Shown here: in pieces, positions 4,437 through 17,237 of the stretch
How the letters are laid out: the number at the start of each line of letters is the position of its first letter
Position numbering within the stretch: the stretch's first letter is position 1
Assembly (NCBI GenBank): GCA_017504545.1
Contig: JAFVRA010000072.1
Coordinates: 1 to 22,474 of the forward strand
Source: Clostridia bacterium
Lineage (GTDB): Bacteria; Bacillota; Clostridia; Oscillospirales; CAG-272
DNA: 22,474 bases
Direction: 5' to 3'
Position numbers and translations under genes: made by a program
The notes under the pieces: generated by a model
What the model was told of the DNA's origin: nothing
The model's database searches: none
What the model saw: the letters and a program-made list of their open reading frames with translations, nothing else

Positions 4437-5066
4437 ATGGATAAAAGCGGCGAGATAATGATAATAGGCGTAGCGGGTGGCACGGGAAGCGGAAAGACCA
4501 CGCTTGCCGAGAATATCGCGAGCGCCTTTGGCAACAAGGTCGCCGTGATCACGCACGACAGCTATTACTGCGCGCAGAACGATAAGACCTACGAGGAGAG
4601 ATGCAAGCAGAATTACGATCACCCCGATGCATTCGAGACAGATCTGCTTTGCGAGCATCTTGACGCTCTTGCGAGAGGTGAGGCGGTTGATATTCCCGTA
4701 TACGATTACACGGTGCATAACCGCTCGGATAAGACTCAAAAAGTCGAGCCTCGCGCAGTTATCGTGCTTGAGGGTATTCTGATCTTCTCGGACAAGCGTC
4801 TGCGAGACAGAATGTCGCTCAAGATCTTCGTTGACACCGATGCCGACGAGCGCATTTTGCGCCGTATATTGCGCGATACCAAGGAGAGAGGCAGAAGCCT
4901 TGACTCTGTTGTAGATCAGTATCTGAGTACGGTAAAGCCGATGCACGACGCCTTTGTTGAGCCTTACAAGCGCTTTGCCGACGTTATCGTTCCCGGTGGC
5001 GGCTCAAACCCCGCGGCACTTGATATGATAATTACGAGAATAAATAAACAGCTTAGTGAAAAGTAA
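4437..5066 (+). CDS. udk: Uridine kinase
   Basis: 209-aa ORF with the P-loop GVAGGTGSGKTT and the NYDHPDAFE and VLEGIL blocks. It starts 1 nt after the tdk stop. Confidence 0.92.
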   Translation: MDKSGEIMIIGVAGGTGSGKTTLAENIASAFGNKVAVITHDSYYCAQNDKTYEERCKQNYDHPDAFETDLLCEHLDALARGEAVDIPVYDYTVHNRSDKTQKVEPRAVIVLEGILIFSDKRLRDRMSLKIFVDTDADERILRRILRDTKERGRSLDSVVDQYLSTVKPMHDAFVEPYKRFADVIVPGGGSNPAALDMIITRINKQLSEK

Positions 5067-5110
5067 TAAAAAAGAGCAAGCACAAGGGGAGATGTCCTTA
5101 GCGGAGAAAT
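5066..5110. repeat. Left arm of a long-range inverted repeat bracketing the 5066-5784 island
   Basis: ATAAAAAAGAGCAAGCACA (5066-5084) is the reverse complement of 5766-5784 with 1 mismatch in 19. TTAGCGGAGAAAT (5098-5110) is the perfect reverse complement of 5738-5750. Confidence 0.6.
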
Positions 5111-6210: not shown

Positions 6211-7133
6211 TCAACGAACGCGAGAATATCTCTCACAACGTCGTCGTGAGTGAAGTCCTCAAGTATCTCGTGACGTGCGCCCTTGTATATCACGCACTTT
6301 ACGGGAATGCCTTTCTTTTTAAGTCCTTTCTCAACCTCAAGAACACCCTTAGAGTAGTTACCTACGGGATCGTCCTCGCCCGACACGAGCAGTACGGGGA
6401 GAGAGGTGGGCATAGCCTTGTACCAGCGCCCGAGGTTGCAGTCTCTGTTCATTCTGACGAGATCCTTCATAGCGCTGACGGTAAAGAAAAATCCGCTGAG
6501 CTTGTCCTCGTGAAATGCCGATAGGCGCTCTTGGTTCGTGGAGAGCCAGCGCGAAGGATCGGTACCCTCAAAGCGCTCGGTGTAATTACCGAATGCGAGC
6601 TTCTGCACGAGGGGAGAAATATGATGACCGCCGCGAAACGCCTTGATCATCGATATTATCGCAATTCCGGGGGTGGCAAGCGGATTCTTGCCGCCTGTGC
6701 CCATAATAATCAGCTTGTCGGGATTTTTGTACTTTGCCGTGGCAAGTCTTACGATAAACGAGCCCATGCTGTGTCCCATAAGAACGTAAGGACCATTCAC
6801 GCCCTTTTCGGCGGTATACTTGCTTATTACGGCATCGGCAAAGCGCTTGACGTCATCAATAAGAAGTTCGTAGCCCTTTTTATCGGCAATGTATCCGAAT
6901 TCAGAAGGATCTGCCGCAGTTTTTCCGTGACCGAGATGATCGTATCCAAAGCATATCCAGCCCTCGTCTGCCATCTGCGACATAAAGCGCTCGTATCTGC
7001 CGATATGCTCGCACATTCCGTGCACTACCTGAAAATATCCGCGCGCCTCACCGTCAGGACAATAGACAACGCCCGTGAGAGTGTGCTTACCGTCAGATGA
7101 GGGGTGTGTAAAGGAATTTACCGTGTAGCTCAT
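6207..7133 (-). CDS. Alpha/beta hydrolase (lysophospholipase / monoacylglycerol-lipase-like)
   Basis: 308-aa ORF with the nucleophile elbow GHSMGS, the oxyanion-type VVHGMCEH block and a C-terminal GARHEIL histidine block. A GGAGGT RBS is present. Confidence 0.85.
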   Translation of the reverse strand: MSYTVNSFTHPSSDGKHTLTGVVYCPDGEARGYFQVVHGMCEHIGRYERFMSQMADEGWICFGYDHLGHGKTAADPSEFGYIADKKGYELLIDDVKRFADAVISKYTAEKGVNGPYVLMGHSMGSFIVRLATAKYKNPDKLIIMGTGGKNPLATPGIAIISMIKAFRGGHHISPLVQKLAFGNYTERFEGTDPSRWLSTNQERLSAFHEDKLSGFFFTVSAMKDLVRMNRDCNLGRWYKAMPTSLPVLLVSGEDDPVGNYSKGVLEVEKGLKKKGIPVKCVIYKGARHEILEDFTHDDVVRDILAFVE

Positions 7134-8761: not shown

Positions 8762-8790
8762 TTGCAATGAAAATAAAAAAATGTTATAAT
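8762..8790 (+). promoter_or_regulatory. Near-consensus sigma-A promoter upstream of the ABC operon
   Basis: TTGCAA (8762-8767), a 17-nt spacer, then TGtTATAAT (8782-8790). The predicted TSS is near 8797, which leaves a 5-prime leader of about 90 nt. Confidence 0.55.
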
Positions 8791-8806
8791 AAATTTAAGA
8801 AAATCA

Positions 8807-8886
8807 TGTAACCTTTTGAGAAAAATTACGACATATAATATAGAGGCACAAGTACCCTCGCCTTTAGTAAACGAAAGGAGATAAAA
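8807..8886 (+). promoter_or_regulatory. Conserved upstream module, copy 1 (before the ABC operon)
   Basis: TGTAACCTTTTGAGAAAAATTACGACATATA...GGCACAAGTACCCT...CGAAAGGAGA. The gapless alignment of 8806-8859 with 14505-14558 gives 43/54 identities by hand count (core 29/31). Confidence 0.5.
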
Positions 8887-11202
8887 ATGTCTTTACTTAA
8901 GCTCAGGGATATCGGCAAGATATACGTTTCGGAGGGATCGGTAGCGGTCGGTCTTCGCGGCGTCAATCTTGATTTCGATATCGGTGAATTTATTGCCGTA
9001 ACGGGCAAATCGGGAAGCGGTAAGACCACGCTTCTCAATATGATAAGCGGTATGGATACCTACGAGGAGGGAGAGCTCTATATAGAGGGCGAGCCCACCT
9101 CGCATTACGATCAGCTCGAGTGGGAGAACTATCGTAAGAAGTATATATCGTTTATCTTTCAGGAATACAACATAATCGACAGCTTCACGGTGCTTCAGAA
9201 CGTTGAGCTTGCGCTTTCTTATATCGACTCTCCGAGTGAGAGGCGCGCAAGAGCGCTTGAGCTTATCGAGCGCGTAGGTCTTACAAAATTCAAGAACCAC
9301 AAGGGCTCTAAGCTCTCGGGCGGACAGAAGCAGAGAACGGTCATCGCGCGTGCTCTCGCAAAGGACAGCCCAATAATTCTTGCCGACGAGCCTACGGGAA
9401 ATCTTGACGCTAAGACCTCTGAGGAGATAATTGCGCTTCTTGCCGAGATATCCAAGGATAAGCTCGTTATCGTGGTAACTCACACGGTAGAGGAGCTCCA
9501 AAAGTATGCGACGAGAGAGATAAGAATATTTGACGGTACGGTTGAGCGAGACGAGACGCTTCGCAAGGCAGAAAAGAGATCGACGGTCGATATAAGCGAG
9601 AAGATCGCAAAGCCGCACAATATCAGGCGCGGAATTGAGCTTGGCTGGCAGAGATTTCGCTCTATGCCAAAGCTTTCGGTGTTTATGTGCGCTCTTATGG
9701 TGCTTGCAATACTCGGCACCTTCTTCTCAACTCTGCTGTTCTCGGTGGATCTTGAGACGTCGTATCCCATTTTCGTCCACAGAGACGGCAGACTCGTTAT
9801 CACCCGTCAGGACGGCAGTCCGATAACCGACGATGAGCTTAAAGCTCTCGCAGAGGAGCTTGATGCAAAGGACTTCTGCCATTATGATTATCTTTACGAT
9901 TCGTCCTTCGGCGTGAATGATATATCAGATACGGGCAACCACAGATTTGCACAGGTCTACGCCTACGTTGACGACGGAAGCGTGCGTGCGACTGTCGGAC
10001 ACGAGCCCGAGAACGAAAACGAGGTAATGCTCTCTCTTCCGATAGAGTGGCTCTTGGTGTACGGTACGTCGCTTGACGAAGAGGACACTATCAAGCTCGG
10101 CGGCAGGACCTACACTATTTCGGGAGTACACTACTATCTCGACAATACCAAGACGGGCAGGGCGATATTCAGCGAGGAAGGCTTTGAGGAGTGTATCGAC
10201 TCTAACTTCATAAACGGCTATCAGTTCGGATTTATTTCTCTTACCCCGAGATTTGCTACCGACACCGCTCTTTTTGACTACGTGACGAATATCTATATAG
10301 ACGATACGCTCGGAGAGAACGAATGTTACTTTACAAGCACCGACTACAGGACTATCGAGAACATCAAGGTCGCGGCAAGAAAGGAAAATATAGACACGGC
10401 CGCTCTTACCTTTGACTTTAATAAGAACAGCAAGACGGGTATGTCTCAAGGATTTAGCTATCCTTACGGTGACGCTAAGATCAACCTTGACAGATGCAAG
10501 GTTGTTACAAGCAGCAATGATACCCCTTACCTTGAGTACGATTACGGCTACAACGGCGGTATCGTCTACGAGGACGTTCTCATCGTCGATAAGTACGCTC
10601 CCAACGGCTCGGTAGATATTTATATCTCGCGTGATATAGCCGACGCTATGTTTGAAAACCTCAGAGAGCCCAACTATATGCAGGCATCTCTCTTCTTTGG
10701 CAGCGACTCGCGCGCAGAGAAGGCGGCAGAGGAGCTTCAGGACAAGGGCTATTTCACGATGCTCTCAAGCCATACCTACGAGAGAGGCGAGGACATCATA
10801 CTCTCGCTCTTTATAAACATCTTTATGATAGGCTTCTGGCTCGTAACTCTTCTTTTCTTAGGACTCTTCCTCTACGTTTGCTCGGCAAGAGCGATAGTTG
10901 CCAAGAGAGGCGACATCGCGATACTTCGCTCAATGGGAATCGAGAATAAGGTCATCAAGATATCTATGTACGCGCAGACGGCAATAGCGATGATACCTTC
11001 ATTCGTTGTGCTCTTCTTTACGGCTGTGTTGATCTACACGTCGCCGTGGCTCAACCCGATGTTCCCGTTTATGCACGCGCATCAGTACGCGCTGATACTT
11101 CTCGGAATGGTGCTTATAAATCTTTATATCTCGAGAAAGTATAACAAAAAGATGTTCAAGGAAAGCGTCCGCAAAACTTTGAAGGGAGGAGCTAAGGAAT
11201 GA
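8887..11202 (+). CDS. MacB-type ABC transporter, fused ATP-binding domain and FtsX-like permease (771 aa)
   Basis: Walker A is GKSGSGKTT, the signature is LSGGQKQR, Walker B is ILADEPTGNLD and the H-loop is VTHT. TM1 lies near aa 262-285, followed by an extracytoplasmic domain of about 350 aa (ENEVMLSLP...IKLGGRTYTISGV, MacB periplasmic-core-like). Three C-terminal TM helices follow. An AAAGGAGA RBS is present. Confidence 0.85.
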   Translation: MSLLKLRDIGKIYVSEGSVAVGLRGVNLDFDIGEFIAVTGKSGSGKTTLLNMISGMDTYEEGELYIEGEPTSHYDQLEWENYRKKYISFIFQEYNIIDSFTVLQNVELALSYIDSPSERRARALELIERVGLTKFKNHKGSKLSGGQKQRTVIARALAKDSPIILADEPTGNLDAKTSEEIIALLAEISKDKLVIVVTHTVEELQKYATREIRIFDGTVERDETLRKAEKRSTVDISEKIAKPHNIRRGIELGWQRFRSMPKLSVFMCALMVLAILGTFFSTLLFSVDLETSYPIFVHRDGRLVITRQDGSPITDDELKALAEELDAKDFCHYDYLYDSSFGVNDISDTGNHRFAQVYAYVDDGSVRATVGHEPENENEVMLSLPIEWLLVYGTSLDEEDTIKLGGRTYTISGVHYYLDNTKTGRAIFSEEGFEECIDSNFINGYQFGFISLTPRFATDTALFDYVTNIYIDDTLGENECYFTSTDYRTIENIKVAARKENIDTAALTFDFNKNSKTGMSQGFSYPYGDAKINLDRCKVVTSSNDTPYLEYDYGYNGGIVYEDVLIVDKYAPNGSVDIYISRDIADAMFENLREPNYMQASLFFGSDSRAEKAAEELQDKGYFTMLSSHTYERGEDIILSLFINIFMIGFWLVTLLFLGLFLYVCSARAIVAKRGDIAILRSMGIENKVIKISMYAQTAIAMIPSFVVLFFTAVLIYTSPWLNPMFPFMHAHQYALILLGMVLINLYISRKYNKKMFKESVRKTLKGGAKE

Positions 11203-13931
11203 TCAGGATAGATAAGCTTAACAAATATTACGGCAACCGAGGCGCAAATCAGGTGCACGCCGTAAACGACGTTTCTATTACTCTCCCCGATAGCGGCATG
11301 GTCGCTATCTTCGGTAAATCGGGTTGCGGAAAGACTACGCTTCTCAATATGGTGGGAGGTCTTGACAAGGCAAGCTCGGGTGAGGTGCTCATTGACGGTA
11401 AGAAGATCACCCCCGACTCCGACAGCGCGAGAAATCTCAAGGTCGGATATATATTCCAGAATTACAACCTCTCCGAGAGAATGAGCGTTTACGATAACGT
11501 TGCGGTCTCGCTCCGCCTTTGCGGTATGACGGACGAAGCCGAGATAGAGGAGAGAGTTCTCGCGGCGCTCCGAAGCGTTGATATGGAGAAATACCGCAAG
11601 CGTCTGCCGACGGCTCTCTCGGGCGGTCAGCAGCAGAGAGTTGCTATTGCAAGAGCAATAGTGAAGAACCCCTCGCTCATCCTTGCCGACGAGCCTACGG
11701 GCAACCTTGACGAGCAGAACACGGTCATGGTTATGGATCTTCTCAAGTCGCTCTCGCGCGACAGGCTCGTGCTTCTCGTCACTCACGAGGCGCATCTCGT
11801 TGACAGCTATTGCGACAAGGTGATCGGTCTCTCTGACGGAAAGATATTTGAGGAGAGAGAGAACAGCGTAACCGAGGGCTATATTGGCAAGAAGGCAAAC
11901 GAGGTCTATCTTGGCGATATGGAGCGCGACGAGCTCTCGGACGGAGAGCTTACCTTTGAGTATTACGGCGACCGCGAGAACAAGCCGACAAAGCTTCGCA
12001 TCATCTCCTCGGGCGGCGTGCTTTACGTCTCTGCCGATGACGACGTCAAGCTGAAGATAGTCGATAAGTCCTCCGAGCTTATAGTTCACGAGGGCAAGTA
12101 TACCGAGAAGCCCAAGAGCGAGCCAAAGGAGCTTCCGTCTGAGCTCAAAGCTCCGATACCCGAGGGCAAGAGCGGACGGCTCTATAATTTCAAGGGCGCA
12201 CTCAAGAGCGGATTTAACAGCAACTTTGCCAAGAAGCGCAAGAGAAAGATACTTCTTATACTCACTATGATGTGCTTTGCGGCGATAATCGTATTCGTCG
12301 TAGGTCTTTTCGGTGCGGCGATATATAACTTCTCGACGGTTGAGCAGTATTTCAACTCAAACGTAGTAGGCGTTGACGCCAACGATATGAGCAACGAAGA
12401 GGCAAGGGAAGTAGTGAGCAGGGGAGACGCCGAGCTTTTCGTGATCAGCGGAAGCTTCAGCGAATATCGTCCCAACGTTCACGATTATCTCAATTTCTCG
12501 TTTGGTAGCTACGATACCGCATCCTACGGCATCCGCTACGATAATGCGGGAAGTGAGAACGTGCAGGCTCTTCCGATCTCTCTGCTTGAGGGCAGAAGAC
12601 TGCTTGCAGGCAGTGACGAGATCAAGGCTGAAAACGAGATCATTATCACCGCTGCGGTTGCAGACACCATAATAAAGGCGATGGGCAATTCCAACGTAAA
12701 GGAATACGAGGATCTTATCCACGCAAACGTCTCGCGCGGCGGCAGATACGGTTACTATTACGACGGTATGGATATGATATCCCCCGGCGGCAGAGCGCAG
12801 AACAGTAAGCTCAAGGTCGTTGGCGTAGTGTCGGGCTCTGACGAGGAGGCTTTCTACCACGAGTACACCTATTTGCAGAAGACTCTTACCGATCTTTACG
12901 GCGTAAACGCGGGATATTTCTCGGATCTTGAGCATTCGGGCTTTGACCTTCCCGCGCTTGAGAACGGAAGCGTGTACACCCTTGAGGGCTACTACACCTA
13001 CGGCGGCTATGAAAAGACGGTCATTGGCGGTGAAAGCTACAGAGTTGCCGACACTTACGAGGTCACCGTGACAGATGAGATGTTAAGTCAGCACTGCAAA
13101 GATTACTACGGCTACGATCTTACCGAGGGCGTTGAAGCGTATCTCAGATATTACTACGGCCTTAACAGCTTTGAGGACTGGGCGGCAACTTACTACGGCA
13201 AGGAGGGGCTCAGCAAGGAAGAAGCGAAGAACCTTCTTGACTCGGAGTATCAGTCGTTTATGGAAAGAGCCAAGGTAGAGTGCCTTATGCGCGAGGGAAA
13301 CAACGTTCCTAAGGTAATAATGACGCTTGAGGATATGAAGCGAGTGGCTACCTCCTACTCGATCGGCAAAGACTCCGAGGGACTTACCTCGGGCATCTAT
13401 CAGGGCGGAACCTACGTCTTTTATTCAAAGGATGCGAAGGCGCTCGGCGAGAGCATGATCGAGAAATACGGCGAGGATAACGTGATCACACCCAAGTCCT
13501 CTCGCGACTATTTGCGCGCAGAGTATTACGGCACCTTCGTATCTCTCACGGTAGTTCTTATAGTCGTCAGCGCGATAATGTCGCTCTGTCTCTACTTCAT
13601 CATGCGCTCGTCTCTTATGGGGGACATCAAGGAGGTCGGAATCAGCCGCGCTATCGGCGTAAGCAAGAGAAATCTCTCCTACAGATATCTTATTGAGACG
13701 CTGATGCTCTTTATTATGACTATCTTCGTAGGATTCCTGCTCTCAAGTATACTGATGGGACTTCTCACGAGCCTTATATCGACTATGGGTATGCTGGTCT
13801 ACTACCCGTGGTGGCTCGGAATAATCACGCTTATAGGAATAATCATCATCACCGTGATATGCGGACAGATGCCTATACGCTCGCTTCTTCGCCGTTCACC
13901 CGCGGAGATACTTGCAAAATACGATATCTAA
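11199..13931 (+). CDS. MacB-type ABC transporter, fused ATP-binding domain and FtsX-like permease (910 aa)
   Basis: Walker A is GKSGCGKTT, the signature is LSGGQQQR, Walker B is ILADEPTGNLD and the H-loop is VTHE. A cytoplasmic linker of about 120 aa precedes TM1 (near aa 350-375). An extracytoplasmic domain of about 400 aa follows (ENEIIITAAVADTI...KLKVVGVVSG), then three C-terminal TM helices. An ATGA overlap with the upstream gene (11199-11202) implies translational coupling. Confidence 0.85.
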   Translation: MIRIDKLNKYYGNRGANQVHAVNDVSITLPDSGMVAIFGKSGCGKTTLLNMVGGLDKASSGEVLIDGKKITPDSDSARNLKVGYIFQNYNLSERMSVYDNVAVSLRLCGMTDEAEIEERVLAALRSVDMEKYRKRLPTALSGGQQQRVAIARAIVKNPSLILADEPTGNLDEQNTVMVMDLLKSLSRDRLVLLVTHEAHLVDSYCDKVIGLSDGKIFEERENSVTEGYIGKKANEVYLGDMERDELSDGELTFEYYGDRENKPTKLRIISSGGVLYVSADDDVKLKIVDKSSELIVHEGKYTEKPKSEPKELPSELKAPIPEGKSGRLYNFKGALKSGFNSNFAKKRKRKILLILTMMCFAAIIVFVVGLFGAAIYNFSTVEQYFNSNVVGVDANDMSNEEAREVVSRGDAELFVISGSFSEYRPNVHDYLNFSFGSYDTASYGIRYDNAGSENVQALPISLLEGRRLLAGSDEIKAENEIIITAAVADTIIKAMGNSNVKEYEDLIHANVSRGGRYGYYYDGMDMISPGGRAQNSKLKVVGVVSGSDEEAFYHEYTYLQKTLTDLYGVNAGYFSDLEHSGFDLPALENGSVYTLEGYYTYGGYEKTVIGGESYRVADTYEVTVTDEMLSQHCKDYYGYDLTEGVEAYLRYYYGLNSFEDWAATYYGKEGLSKEEAKNLLDSEYQSFMERAKVECLMREGNNVPKVIMTLEDMKRVATSYSIGKDSEGLTSGIYQGGTYVFYSKDAKALGESMIEKYGEDNVITPKSSRDYLRAEYYGTFVSLTVVLIVVSAIMSLCLYFIMRSSLMGDIKEVGISRAIGVSKRNLSYRYLIETLMLFIMTIFVGFLLSSILMGLLTSLISTMGMLVYYPWWLGIITLIGIIIITVICGQMPIRSLLRRSPAEILAKYDI

Positions 13932-13946
13932 CAGAGGAATTTTAAA

Positions 13947-14480
13947 ATGGTGCTTCAGAAAGGACGCCCTGCGGACACCGCAGGGCGACTTGAAAAGGAA
14001 ATACGCTCGTACGATCTGCTTGATTCTCTTGGAATAGAGTACGACAGGATCGACCACGAGCCTGCAATGACTATGGAGGTATGCGAGGAGATAGACAGAG
14101 TGCTTGGCGCTACTATCTGCAAAAATCTCTTTCTTTGCAACAGACAAGAGACCGACTTTTATCTGTTGATGATGCCGGGCGACAAGCCTTTCAAGACGAA
14201 AGACCTGTCATCCCAGATAGGCTCGTCTCGACTTTCGTTCGGCAGTCCTGAGTATATGGAGCAGCTCGTTGATATAACCCCCGGCTCGCTCAGTATTCTC
14301 GGACTTATGAACGACAAGGAGGGCAGGGTGCGCCTGCTTATCGACAAGGACGTGCTCTCGGGCGAGTATATCGGCTGTCATCCGTGTATAAACACCTCGA
14401 GCCTCAGAATTAAGACCTCGGATATGGTCGAGAAGCTTATCCCCGCGCTCCGCCACACGCCCACGCTCGTGGAGCTTTAA
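13947..14480 (+). CDS. YbaK/ProX-like aminoacyl-tRNA trans-editing domain protein
   Basis: 177-aa ORF of the size typical for free-standing YbaK/ProX proteins. It has the CKNLFLCN...FYLLMMPGDK block (the conserved Lys-containing KNLFL motif) and GCHPC. It starts 15 nt after ABC-2 with an AGAGGA RBS. Confidence 0.7.
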   Translation: MVLQKGRPADTAGRLEKEIRSYDLLDSLGIEYDRIDHEPAMTMEVCEEIDRVLGATICKNLFLCNRQETDFYLLMMPGDKPFKTKDLSSQIGSSRLSFGSPEYMEQLVDITPGSLSILGLMNDKEGRVRLLIDKDVLSGEYIGCHPCINTSSLRIKTSDMVEKLIPALRHTPTLVEL

Positions 14481-14505
14481 AATTTTAAAAAAGTTTTATA
14501 AAACG

Positions 14506-14581
14506 TGTAACCTTTCAAGAAAAATTACGACATATATAGTGAAGGCACAAATGCCCTATTTGTCATCGAAAGGAGAACAAA
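14506..14581 (+). promoter_or_regulatory. Conserved upstream module, copy 2 (before the serpin pair)
   Basis: TGTAACCTTTCAAGAAAAATTACGACATATA...GGCACAAATGCCCT...CGAAAGGAGA. See copy 1. No hairpin terminator separates it from the preceding proX-like gene. Confidence 0.5.
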
Positions 14582-15895
14582 ATGAAGAAAATAACTCTTT
14601 CATTGATAAGCGCGCTTCTTCTTTGCGCTATCGCAATAAGCTTTTTTGGATGTAACTCGATGGAAGCTACAGACTTGATGGAGGGAATAACTCCGAACGA
14701 GACGCCGCAAAAGCCCTCTCCTAAGCCTCCTACGGCATCAGGAGATCCTACCGACAAGCCTCCCGTCTTCGACGAGCCTACTACTTTGAAGGCTGCCGAT
14801 AATGCCGCCGCTACAGATTTTGCGCTTCGTCTCTTTAGGGCGAGCAACGAAAAAGGCAAAAACACACTCATCTCGCCCCTCTCGGTGCTTTGCGCACTCT
14901 CTATGACCGCAAACGGTGCTAAGGGAGAGACGAGAGAGCAGATGGAAGCTACTCTCGGAATGCCTATAGAGGAGCTTAATCTTTATATCTCCAACTATAT
15001 GAATAGCCTCCCTAATACTGAAAAGTACAAGCTTCATCTGGCTAACTCTATCTGGTTTACAGATGACGAGCGCTTTACGGTAAATGAAGACTTCTTGCAG
15101 ATTAATGCCGATTATTACGGCGCAGGTGCGTACAAGGCTCCGTTTGATGACTCCACGCTTGAGGATATCAATAATTGGGTGAAGAAAGAGACCGACGGAA
15201 TGATCCCCAAGGTGCTTGACGAGATACCGCCCGAGGCAGTTATGTATCTTGTTAACGCGCTTGCTTTTGAGGCTGAGTGGGCGGAGATCTACAATGAATA
15301 CGCTGTTAGCGACGGCACTTTTACTAAAGAAGACGGCACGAAGCAGAGCGTTGAATTTATGTACAGCGACGAAAGCACATACCTTGAGGACGATAAGGCT
15401 ATCGGCTTTAAGAAGTACTACAAGGATAGGAAATATGCCTTTGTGGCTCTGCTGCCCAACGAGGGTGTCAGCGTTGACGAGTATATCGCCTCTCTTGACG
15501 GCGAGTCGCTGAACGCGCTTCTCAGTAACGCTAAGAATACCTCTGTATCCGCAAAAATGCCGAAGTTTGAGACGGGATATGACGTAGAAATGTCAAAGGT
15601 GCTTCAATCTATGGGTATGATCGACGCGTTTGACGGAAATAAGGCAGATTTTTCTGGTATTGGTACTTCAAGTGCGGGAAATCTTAGGATAAATCGCGTA
15701 ATACACAAGACCTTTCTATCGGTTGCCGAGAAGGGAACAAAGGCAGGTGCGTCAACTGTAGTTGAGGTTACGGATGAGTCTGCTCCTATGGAAGTAAAGC
15801 GCGTATTCCTCGACAGACCTTTTGTGTATATGCTCGTTGACTGCGAGAACAATCTTCCGTTCTTTATAGGAACGATGATGGACATTGAGAAATAA
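14582..15895 (+). CDS. Serpin (serine protease inhibitor) lipoprotein, paralog 1
   Basis: 437 aa with a signal peptide ending in the lipobox-like FFGC (Cys24) and a Pro/Thr/Lys-rich spacer (aa 38-68). The serpin hinge is EKGTKAGAST and the C-terminal signature is FLDRPFVYMLVD...PFFIGTM. Confidence 0.9.
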   Translation: MKKITLSLISALLLCAIAISFFGCNSMEATDLMEGITPNETPQKPSPKPPTASGDPTDKPPVFDEPTTLKAADNAAATDFALRLFRASNEKGKNTLISPLSVLCALSMTANGAKGETREQMEATLGMPIEELNLYISNYMNSLPNTEKYKLHLANSIWFTDDERFTVNEDFLQINADYYGAGAYKAPFDDSTLEDINNWVKKETDGMIPKVLDEIPPEAVMYLVNALAFEAEWAEIYNEYAVSDGTFTKEDGTKQSVEFMYSDESTYLEDDKAIGFKKYYKDRKYAFVALLPNEGVSVDEYIASLDGESLNALLSNAKNTSVSAKMPKFETGYDVEMSKVLQSMGMIDAFDGNKADFSGIGTSSAGNLRINRVIHKTFLSVAEKGTKAGASTVVEVTDESAPMEVKRVFLDRPFVYMLVDCENNLPFFIGTMMDIEK

Positions 15896-15925
15896 GTCGA
15901 ACGTAAGGCTTTGAGGGAGAAGAAA

Positions 15926-17182
15926 ATGAAAAACAAAAAATTTTATCTTAGCATATCTGCCTTGTTGCTTCTGTGCGCGATGCTGTTTAATATCGTTTCC
16001 TGCACTAAAGTCAAGGCTGCCGATCTTATGGAGGGAGTGACTCCGAGAGAGGTAGAAGTGCGCGAGGAGCTTAGCGAGGATAATGCCGCCGTTACAGATT
16101 TCGCGCTTCGTCTTTTTAAGGCGACTAATGCCGGTGGCAAAAACACGCTTATCTCGCCCCTCTCGGTGCTTTGCGCCCTCGCAATGACGACTAACGGCGC
16201 TAAGGGAGAGACGAGAGAGCAGATGGAAGCAACGCTCGGAATGAGCGCCGAGGAGCTCAATCTCTATCTTTACTCGTATATGAACTCCTTGCCGACGGGT
16301 GAGAAGTATAAGCTTAGTCTTGCAAACTCGATCTGGTTCAGAGATGACGAGAGATTTACGGTAAACGAGGATTTCCTGCAGACCAACGCCGATTATTACG
16401 GCGCGGGTGCATACAAAGCGCCCTTTGATAAATCTACCAAGAAGGACATCAATAATTGGGTAAAGGAAAATACCGACGGAATGATCCCCGAGGTGCTTGA
16501 CGAGATACCGCCTGAGGCAGTTATGTATCTCGTTAACGCGCTTGCATTTGAAGCCGAGTGGTCTGATATATATAAAAAGACTCAGGTGCGCGACGGCACT
16601 TTTACTAAAGAGGACGGCACTAAGCAGAGCGCTGAGTTTATGTATAGCGAAGAGCACCGTTATCTTGAGGACGAAAAGGCTACGGGATTTATGAAGTATT
16701 ACAGAGGAAGCAAATACGCCTTCGTAGCGCTTCTTCCCAACGAGGGTGTAACCGTCAAGGAGTATTTGAATTCGATAGACGGAGAGGCTCTTAGCGCTCT
16801 CTTGTCAGCACCGAAGGGGAATTCAGTACAGGCTGCAATACCGAAGTTTGAGACCGAGTACAGCACCGAGATGTCTGAAATACTCAAGTCTATGGGAATG
16901 CCGCTCGCTTTTGATGAGGACAATGCAGATTTCTCGGGTCTTGGCAGATCAAGCGCGGGAAATATATACATCAGCCGCGTGATACACAAGACCTTTATCT
17001 CGGTAGCCGAGAAGGGAACGAAGGCAGGCGCGGTGACTGCTATTGAAATGGATGGTAAAGGCGCGAGCGACCCCGACGAGACCAAGAGAGTATATCTCGA
17101 CAGACCATTCGTTTATATGCTCGTTGACTGCGAGAACAACATTCCGTTCTTTATAGGAACGATGATGGATATTGAAAAGTAA
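15926..17182 (+). CDS. Serpin (serine protease inhibitor) lipoprotein, paralog 2
   Basis: 418 aa from the ATG at 15926, with a GAGGGAGA RBS at 15913-15920. The ORF-track TTG at 15911 overlaps that RBS. The lipobox is IVSC, the hinge is EKGTKAGAVT and the C-terminus is YLDRPFVYMLVD...PFFIGTM. It is roughly three-quarters identical to paralog 1 by eye. Confidence 0.9.
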   Translation: MKNKKFYLSISALLLLCAMLFNIVSCTKVKAADLMEGVTPREVEVREELSEDNAAVTDFALRLFKATNAGGKNTLISPLSVLCALAMTTNGAKGETREQMEATLGMSAEELNLYLYSYMNSLPTGEKYKLSLANSIWFRDDERFTVNEDFLQTNADYYGAGAYKAPFDKSTKKDINNWVKENTDGMIPEVLDEIPPEAVMYLVNALAFEAEWSDIYKKTQVRDGTFTKEDGTKQSAEFMYSEEHRYLEDEKATGFMKYYRGSKYAFVALLPNEGVTVKEYLNSIDGEALSALLSAPKGNSVQAAIPKFETEYSTEMSEILKSMGMPLAFDEDNADFSGLGRSSAGNIYISRVIHKTFISVAEKGTKAGAVTAIEMDGKGASDPDETKRVYLDRPFVYMLVDCENNIPFFIGTMMDIEK

Positions 17183-17196
17183 ACTTAATGGAAAAG

Positions 17197-17226
17197 AAAA
17201 AACGGCTGAGAGATCAGCCGTTTTTT
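17197..17226. terminator. Bidirectional intrinsic terminator between the convergent serpin and minus-strand operons
   Basis: AAAAAACGGCTGA (17197-17209) pairs with TCAGCCGTTTTTT (17214-17226) around a GAGA loop. There is an A-run on one side and a T-run on the other. Confidence 0.8.
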
Positions 17227-17237
17227 CTATGCGTAAC

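Follow-up and report, generated by a model that had tools for sequence, protein, structure and literature searches.

Organisation of the locus

The DNA considered here is a stretch of 22,474 nucleotides (nt) from a Clostridia bacterium of the Oscillospirales (positions 1 to 22,474 of contig JAFVRA010000072.1, assembly GCA_017504545.1), referred to throughout as the window. Judged by the names of homologues and by sample labels (XIEF21 and TONG22, which probably stand for studies of ruminant gut), the bacterium is an uncultured member of the Oscillospiraceae/Ruminococcaceae and probably a ruminant-gut organism. It contains a segment of five genes, all on the + strand, which encode two ATP-binding cassette proteins (ABC1 and ABC2), a ProXp-ala-like protein (ProX-like for short) and two serpins (Table 1). 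A short sequence module is present in two copies, one before ABC1 and one before serpin 1. A sequence-only reading of the same DNA had put the segment forward as a candidate co-regulated module running from a strong promoter at 8762-8790 to a strong terminator at 17197-17226. Gene calls and Pfam matches agree with the five same-strand genes at the coordinates that it gave, and both the promoter and the terminator are recovered by scanning and folding. The tight junctions it described are likewise confirmed: ABC1 and ABC2 overlap by ATGA, 15 nt separate ABC2 from the ProX-like gene and 30 nt lie between the two serpin genes. The gap between the ProX-like gene and serpin 1 is 101 nt long and contains the second copy of the duplicated module (8784-8858 and 14483-14557, 76% identical), which that reading had also noticed.

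Table 1. Genes and predicted regulatory features of the segment. ECF, extracytoplasmic function; NBD, nucleotide-binding domain; PWM, position weight matrix; aa, amino acids.
Feature	Position	Strand	Description
Sigma-70 (housekeeping)-type promoter, extended -10	8762..8790	+	TTGCAA-17-TATAAT preceded by TG; consensus scan
Predicted ECF-sigma-type promoter, copy 1, before ABC1	8807..8836	+	TGTAACC-N15-CGACATAT; PWM 43.9 bits
ABC1	8887..11202	+	771 aa; N-terminal NBD fused to divergent membrane domain; Pfam ABC_tran
ABC2	11199..13931	+	910 aa; NBD fused to FtsX-type permease; Pfam ABC_tran and FtsX
ProXp-ala-like protein	13947..14480	+	Pfam tRNA_edit; free-standing aminoacyl-tRNA editing domain
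Predicted ECF-sigma-type promoter, copy 2, before serpin 1	14506..14535	+	TGTAACC-N15-CGACATAT; PWM 42.7 bits
Serpin 1	14582..15895	+	Lipoprotein; lipobox Cys24, Pro-rich tether, inhibitory-type hinge; reactive loop ...VEVTDESAPMEV...
Serpin 2	15926..17182	+	Lipoprotein paralogue of serpin 1; reactive loop ...IEMDGKGASDPDET...
Bidirectional intrinsic terminator	17195..17228	both	-23.5 kcal/mol, z -6.45, then U run

The sigma-70-type site matches the consensus at 10 of 12 positions and is among the two best matches of the scanned region. Its pattern, TTGnnn-17-TGnTATAAT, is kept upstream of ABC1 in the window and in four related loci (L089, L091, L092 and L184). At the far end of the segment, A and T runs flank the terminator hairpin, which is therefore able to end both convergent transcripts, that of the serpins and that of a 96-aa gene which shares the terminator. 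As the sequence-only reading had held, there is no convincing internal terminator on the + strand; two weak matches both fall within the coding region of serpin 1, and the scan for terminators gave 10 matches where 11 were expected, which overall is no better than chance. Codons 7-14 of the ProX-like open reading frame (ORF; 13965-13987) contain a perfect GC-rich hairpin of 10 bp (-22.8 kcal/mol, z -5.9) that lacks a U tract on the + strand. L089 and L008 share this hairpin, and the sole substitution in L089 breaks a pair and is not compensatory.

A predicted ECF promoter before each unit

Promoters read by sigma factors of the extracytoplasmic function (ECF) type are characterised by AAC in the -35 box, a CG that starts the -10 box and a distance of about 16-17 nt between the two. 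Each of these features is found in the core of the duplicated module, TGTAAC-N16-CGAC, which has AAC in its -35 box, a CG-initial -10 box and a spacing of 16 nt. This core occurs twice in the window (8807-8832 and 14506-14531) against 0.04 occurrences expected, with each copy lying 43-47 nt upstream of the start codon of its unit, and 14 of the 16 positions between TGTAAC and CGAC are identical in the two copies. The promoter of Tt-RpoE1, an ECF sigma factor from Clostridia, has been defined by experiment as tGTTAC-N16-CGTC (PMC3397946). The module is best read as an ECF sigma promoter of the form TGTAACC-N15-CGACATAT, with transcription from copy 1 predicted to start at about 8839-8841. Upstream of ABC1, the element lies 15-23 nt further on from the sigma-70 promoter; a consensus scan finds no sigma-70-type promoter accompanying copy 2.

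The element is also distinctive. A PWM built from 11 instances gives no score above 12 bits at any window position apart from the two sites, and when it was run over 1.4 Mb of unrelated loci no match exceeded 20 bits. These control loci came from the contig scan made with the ABC2 alignment, where 79 of the 80 proved to be unrelated ABC ATPases and L009 was the sole full-length relative. An RNA element was considered as an explanation for the module and ruled out, because an Rfam search of the window returned no match and the spacer between the ProX-like gene and serpin 1 has no significant RNA fold (z -0.7).

Conservation in related loci follows the two boxes. Upstream of ABC1, neither TGTAACC nor CGACATAT varies among the window, L089, L091 and L092, in which ABC2 identity to the window protein falls from 77% (L089) through 57% (L091) to 51% (L092), and the 15-nt spacer between the boxes varies in sequence while keeping its length. 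Serpin orthologues in L089, L090, L008 and L165 have these boxes upstream as well, and so, with a different spacer, does a lipoprotein serpin (49-53% identical) on an unrelated metagenome contig, L119. No sigma-70-type promoter lies near the serpin-proximal sites. Because ECF-type promoters precede both ABC1 and serpin 1, the segment would comprise two units and not one simple operon, and because the sigma-70-type site is conserved with the ECF-type element just downstream of it, the ABC unit would have tandem promoters.

A candidate sigma factor encoded elsewhere

No recognisable regulator gene is encoded in the window. A metagenome collection was scanned for TGTAACCNTT-N12-CGACATAT, a 17-base pattern, and in one assembly, JAEIGA01, 10 of 11 motif hits fall shortly upstream of a same-strand ORF. 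Their targets include an ABC1 that is 96% identical to that of the window (L103) and a serpin 2 that is also 96% identical (L165), together with three lipoproteins, two membrane proteins and two ECF sigma genes. The sigma genes (L101 and L153, 67% identical to one another) stand directly behind the motif and match Pfam Sigma70_ECF, r2 and r4_2. Each is overlapped by a downstream gene for a protein of about 213 aa with a single transmembrane segment, which is likely to be an anti-sigma factor.

Orthologues of these sigma factors (at least 70% identity) are widespread in metagenome-assembled genomes of Ruminococcaceae and Oscillospiraceae. In three further lineages (L169-L173), the operon consists of the sigma factor, the putative anti-sigma factor and a lipoprotein with vWA and YfbK_C domains, and it is preceded by TGTAACC-N15-CGA(C/T/G)nTAT. 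The motif thus precedes an ECF sigma gene in five lineages (L101, L153 and the three in L169-L173). The presence of the same motif before a sigma gene and before its target genes is a classic sign of an autoregulated ECF regulon, and the most likely cognate regulator of the window element is this conserved Oscillospiraceae operon of ECF sigma, single-pass putative anti-sigma and vWA lipoprotein.

Several observations accompany these operons. The vWA/YfbK_C-domain protein consistently follows the sigma/anti-sigma pair (L153, 280-2753; L169, 11256-13160); in L153 it has a lipoprotein-type signal peptide and a second lipoprotein gene comes next, so that both proteins are candidates for co-sensors or first targets of the sigma factor. 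The bases that directly follow the -10 box, both in the window (8837-8850 and 14536-14548) and upstream of the sigma genes in L101, L153, L169-L173, L003 and L174, are rich in purines and resemble one another between promoters of different ECF sigmas (for example TAGTGAAGGC, TAGGTGAAGCCCG and TAAGTGAAGGGG). This similarity suggests a common initially transcribed sequence or 5' leader motif. Finally, TGTAACC-N15-CGACATAT with variable spacers is found on the + strand, after orientation, of four low-GC contigs (L099, 1705-1734; L144, 950-979; L151, 4406-4435; L152, 6332-6361), where it precedes MacAB-TolC-like operons by about 85-95 nt. These operons comprise genes for an NBD and for two permeases of the MacB type and, on contigs that are long enough, for a putative adaptor and outer-membrane protein, these roles being assigned by gene order and size. 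The matches represent either similar ECF promoters driving MacB-type pumps in a distant phylum or a conserved chance match.

The ABC pair, the serpins and the ProX-like protein

Both ABC proteins match Pfam ABC_tran (E 1e-32 for ABC1 and 1e-35 for ABC2) and have intact NBD motifs, the Walker A, signature, Walker B and H-loop sequences being GKSGSGKTT, LSGGQ, ILADE and THT in ABC1 and GKSGCGKTT, LSGGQ, ILADE and THE in ABC2. By hydropathy, ABC2 has a first transmembrane segment at residues 348-382, an extracytoplasmic domain of about 390 aa and further transmembrane segments from residue 775. It matches Pfam FtsX (E 1e-11), and its AlphaFold model (mean predicted local distance difference test score 78) finds full-length MacB structures (5lil, 5gko and 5nik) as its top Foldseek matches, at E about 1e-27 and a target-normalised template modelling score of about 0.6. 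ABC2 models as a MacB-type (type VII) fold, and its fold and topology fit the definition of a type VII ABC transporter (PMC5985334).

The sequence-only reading had proposed two MacB-type pumps, a label that fits ABC2 by its fold and ABC1 more tentatively. The NBD of ABC1 is of the MacB/LolD/MJ0796 class, and hydropathy gives a first transmembrane segment at residues 258-290, a loop of about 340 aa and three transmembrane segments from residue 634, of which the last (the fourth overall) was placed by eye. The membrane domain has no Pfam FtsX match even at E<=10 and none by PDB profile search, and in a profile-profile comparison of the ABC1 and ABC2 families (hhalign) the NBD alone aligns. Its tentative assignment to the FtsX type draws on topology and on one motif, KRGDIAILRSMGI, whose resemblance to FtsX was judged by eye. 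The translational coupling of the two genes (ATGA) suggests that their products pair, as LolC and LolE do, and probably make up a heterodimeric ABC transporter of the MacB type (type VII). A role in anti-phage defence was considered and rejected, a PADLOC scan having returned generic ATPase-domain matches only for the ABC proteins and nothing for the ProX-like protein or the serpins.

The serpins, which are 69% identical to each other, cover positions 2-369 of the 370 in the Pfam Serpin profile (E 1e-89 and 2e-88), and their closest solved structure is tengpin (E 5e-115), followed by miropin (E 9e-53). In agreement with the proposal that they are surface proteins, both carry lipoprotein signal peptides, with a lipobox (...SFFG-C24 for serpin 1, ...IVS-C for serpin 2) whose Cys is invariant in eight of eight aligned homologues. 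Serpin 1 has an additional Pro-rich tether of about 23 aa. In inhibitory serpins, Thr at P14 and small residues at P12-P9 permit insertion of the reactive loop, and by alignment the hinges here, EKGTKAGAS and EKGTKAGAV, each followed by T, are of this inhibitory type (EKGTKAGA(S/V)T). The reactive loop is the most variable stretch of the serpin alignment, and the difference between the loops of the two paralogues (Table 1) suggests different protease targets. Counting from the hinge, the P1 residue of serpin 1 would tentatively be Glu and that of serpin 2 about Lys, the two loops differing in length. The sequence A-x-D-L-M-x-G-x-T-P follows the lipobox Cys in all eight aligned serpins (window 14651-14695, residues 24-38 of serpin 1) and could be a sorting, tethering or interaction motif.

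The ProX-like protein matches Pfam tRNA_edit (E 1e-23), and its closest solved structure is ProXp-ala (5vxb, E 5e-20). It is not an equivalog of YbaK, as its NCBIfam YbaK score is 20.6 against a cut-off of 153 bits, and it has neither a signal peptide nor a transmembrane segment. Its gene is probably co-transcribed with the ABC pair, since it begins 15 nt after ABC2.

Linkage of the ABC pair and the serpins among relatives

The genes around the segment are housekeeping genes (FGGY kinase, alpha/beta hydrolase, PHP-domain protein, malic enzyme and fumarase). In L089 and L090 the order is FGGY, then ABC1, ABC2, the ProX-like gene and one serpin, then the 96-aa gene and PHP. The one serpin there corresponds to serpin 2 as its orthologue (94% identical), and serpin 1 is therefore an additional, diverged copy in the lineage of the window. 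L091 retains FGGY and the ABC pair, followed by unrelated genes, with no ProX-like gene or serpin; in L092 the ABC pair is followed by a short ORF and the same 96-aa and PHP genes, and neither the ProX-like gene nor the serpins lie between; in L184 the ABC pair stands alone, again with no ProX-like gene or serpin. Because relatives hold the pair at this site without the ProX-like and serpin genes, the ABC pair is ancestral there. The ProX-like gene and one serpin appear to have been inserted downstream of it in a narrow sub-lineage, the serpin there carrying a copy of the predicted ECF promoter of the ABC pair. There is no clear signal of recent transfer of this cassette, its identity to L089 (93-94%) being within the range of the flanking housekeeping genes (61-95%).

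Serpins also occur without the pumps. Those that are 65-72% identical to the window serpins lie directly behind another ECF sigma gene and a putative anti-sigma gene in a contig from human gut (L003-L005) and in contigs from ruminants (L174-L183), and a serpin of the same identity class stands alone behind TGAAAC-N16-CGTT in L006 and L007; in none of these is there an adjacent ABC pair. A conserved ABC-serpin linkage, on which the sequence-only reading had staked its proposal, is thus largely not borne out by the gene neighbourhoods: it is restricted to a narrow clade in which ABC2 identity is at least 77%. This lack of conservation argues against a dedicated pump-cargo relation and for regulatory coupling.

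Some of these loci have features of their own. In L008, runs of N at about 4980-5080 and 10110-10210 (200 N in total) break the ABC pair and the second serpin, and the first serpin resembles a hybrid of serpin 2 and serpin 1, probably through paralogue collapse in assembly. Pseudogenisation was considered for apparent deletions in the ABC pair and for the hybrid and discarded, as they coincide with the N runs and are probable assembly artefacts. L174 has an orphan near-match, TGAAACC-N15-CGACTTATA (6508-6538, 29 bits), between a 189-aa gene and the serpin-linked ECF sigma gene, with a terminator-like hairpin about 100 nt downstream; it may mark a short transcript or leader. In related gut species, the serpin loci of L003 (14203-15950 and 16082-20396) and L174 (11842-16393) are crowded with further ECF sigma/anti-sigma pairs, one of whose sigmas is 39-42% identical to the L101/L153 sigma, and they also hold BlaR1-type (Peptidase_M56/Penicillinase_R) sensor pairs.

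A regulatory model and its alternatives

We consider it likely that the segment consists of two adjacent transcription units in the regulon of one ECF sigma factor encoded elsewhere in the genome. In this model the first unit (ABC1, ABC2 and the ProX-like gene) would have basal expression from its housekeeping promoter and be induced from its ECF promoter, and the second (the two serpins) would be driven by the second ECF promoter copy, with any read-through from the first unit, and would end at the bidirectional terminator. The sigma factor of the sigma/anti-sigma/vWA operon would read both copies of the element. An envelope signal would inactivate the membrane anti-sigma factor, and the sigma factor so released would amplify its own expression and co-induce a pump and surface-tethered protease inhibitors. 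The pump would do its work on the outer side of the membrane, in the manner of MacB-type transporters, and the serpins would protect surface proteins against serine proteases. Such co-induction is plausible as a response to envelope or protease stress, and the coupling between pump and serpins would be regulatory and not that of a dedicated pump and its substrate. Of the co-regulated module envisaged by the sequence-only reading, co-regulation is retained as probable, through one conserved element before each unit, and the single promoter-to-terminator operon is given up. What really joins the two gene sets appears to be a common ECF sigma factor, a link which that reading had not put forward.

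Several points weigh against this model. The whole regulatory scheme is read from sequence. The metagenome motif scan returned 76 hits, near a rough chance estimate for a 17-base pattern, so that only the gene-proximal subset is informative. Before ABC1, a good sigma-70 promoter lies immediately upstream of the element, and repressor operators, too, are typically placed in this way. The more distant ABC orthologue in L184 (ABC2 42% identical) has the sigma-70 promoter only and lacks the ECF motif, and the ECF link is therefore not universal across the ABC family. The sigma operon is found on other contigs and none is on that of the window; it is tied to the organism of the window by co-occurrence in one assembly, by G+C content (48-51% against 49%) and by the promoter match only.

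It is improbable that the five genes form one operon which starts at the sigma-70 promoter (8762) and ends with the terminator (17228), with the module a relic of duplication or a leader that is not a promoter. The five genes do share one strand and are closely spaced, no internal terminator is convincing, the sigma-70 promoter is kept in orthologues, and some read-through into the serpins is likely, given that conserved promoter, the shared strand and the lack of an internal terminator. Yet the boxes are conserved and the spacers variable in orthologues down to 51% identity, and the boxes are found also before the L119 serpin, on its separate contig, and before ECF sigma genes, which is not what a relic would show; the spacer RNA has no significant structure.

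There is little probability that TGTAACC...CGACATAT is the operator of a DNA-binding regulator, for instance a repressor or a response regulator, with the two units co-regulated by some other mechanism. Such an operator would account for the placing of the element 16-23 nt after the sigma-70 -10 box upstream of ABC1, where a roadblock repressor would bind, and for the 14 of 16 inter-box positions shared by the window copies, which goes beyond what a promoter needs. The element, however, has no dyad or direct-repeat symmetry. Its two boxes are conserved at a fixed distance of 16 nt and bear the AAC and CG signatures of ECF promoters (cf. PMC3397946), the serpin copies have no other promoter, and in five lineages the element stands ahead of an ECF sigma gene, as is classic for a sigma factor that regulates its own gene.

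It is most improbable that the ABC pair is a dedicated LolCDE-like machine which extracts, releases or matures the lipid-anchored serpins, a possibility that the sequence-only reading had raised. ABC2 has a fold of the MacB/LolC type, the two permease-bearing proteins are translationally coupled in the manner of LolC and LolE, and the serpins are adjacent lipoproteins with the same type of promoter. Yet pair and serpins each occur alone in relatives: the pair is kept at the same locus without a serpin in L091, L092 and L184, close serpin homologues are found without the pair in L003, L006, L007 and L174-L183, and linkage is seen only where ABC2 identity is at least 77%. Pure adjacency of functionally and regulatorily unrelated genes, which would suit the housekeeping flanks and the apparent insertion of the ProX-like and serpin genes between the ABC pair and the 96-aa and PHP genes, is hardly credible in view of a rare element (0.04 expected) placed exactly before both units and conserved before both gene types in other lineages.

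The model of two units under one ECF sigma factor invites an extension which we regard as rather unlikely, namely that gut Oscillospiraceae use their lipid-anchored serpins as effectors in ECF circuits that sense proteases, with negative feedback on the protease that triggers them. A protease released outside the cell by the host or by a competitor would damage or cleave the single-pass anti-sigma factor, in its exposed part, or its partner vWA lipoprotein and so release the sigma factor. The sigma factor would then induce surface serpins that inhibit the triggering protease, together with a MacB-type pump to remove antimicrobial peptides or fragments of peptides. Such a circuit would fit both the repeated occurrence of sigma/anti-sigma/serpin operons (L003, L174-L183) and the capture of a promoter copy by the window serpins.

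Comparison with known systems

ECF envelope-stress regulons that include MacB-type transporters are already known, as are bacterial serpins (tengpin, miropin, the siropins and those of Bifidobacterium). What appears to be new is the combination, in the form of lipoprotein serpins that look like members of ECF regulons in two wirings. We know of no described ECF regulon that contains serpins, and full-text literature searches found no link between serpins and ECF sigma factors, the two being treated separately in the one paper that has both terms. The predicted control recurs in at least two arrangements, a promoter copy that would be read in trans and sigma/anti-sigma/serpin operons in cis. 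Serpins of gut commensals are under study as a means to modulate the proteases of the host in inflammatory bowel disease and, to our knowledge, almost nothing is known of when Clostridia make them. The promoter motif and the candidate sigma/anti-sigma pair offer handles on this timing, and the motif predicts the remaining members of the regulon, among which there appear to be lipoproteins, membrane proteins and a pump of the MacB type. However inviting, the view of the adjacent ABC pump as a machine for handling serpins is corrected by this result.

In Bacillus subtilis, sigmaW drives yknWXYZ, a MacB-type detoxification operon. The function of YknXYZ has been described (PMC5985334). The system proposed here shares with the sigmaW, sigmaX, sigmaM and sigmaV regulons of that organism an autoregulated sigma/anti-sigma pair, a promoter with an AAC -35 box and a CG -10 box about 16 nt apart, and targets among envelope proteins, including a MacB-type ABC transporter. 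It differs in that the sigma factor comes from an uncharacterised Oscillospiraceae group and shares its operon with a vWA/YfbK_C lipoprotein, and in that the predicted regulon includes serpins. As a further difference, the ABC proteins here are fused to their NBDs, are paired, have very large extracytoplasmic domains and lack an adaptor. Tt-RpoE1 of Thermoanaerobacter tengcongensis is an ECF sigma of Clostridia whose autoregulated promoter, tGTTAC-N16-CGTC, matches TGTAAC-N16-CGAC in architecture; its box sequences differ, however, its anti-sigma factor is TolB-like and no link to serpins or ABC transporters is reported (PMC3397946).

With MacB and LolCDE the pair shares an N-terminal NBD, four transmembrane helices and a large extracytoplasmic domain between the first and second of them (PMC5985334), and with LolC and LolE the presence of two different permease-bearing subunits. 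Unlike these systems, both subunits have their own NBD, and their extracytoplasmic domains measure about 340-390 aa, where that of MacB has about 200 aa. In addition, there is no MacA-like adaptor, the host appears to be a monoderm member of the Clostridia and the membrane domain of ABC1 is too divergent for Pfam FtsX.

The window serpins resemble the siropins in their gut-commensal setting (PMC5127057), and resemble tengpin and miropin in having a full serpin domain with the inhibitory-type hinge EKGTKAGA. They are set apart from all three by a lipoprotein signal peptide, by the A-x-DLM-x-G-x-TP sequence after the anchor, by their arrangement as tandem paralogues with different reactive loops and by predicted ECF control. 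The serpin of Bifidobacterium breve is induced by proteases through a two-component system. In Bifidobacterium longum, the serpin operon is under carbohydrate control (PMC10059941 and its reference 20). Like these, the window serpins would be commensal serpins whose expression is conditional and not constitutive; unlike them, their proposed regulator is an ECF sigma factor and not a two-component system or a LacI-type protein.

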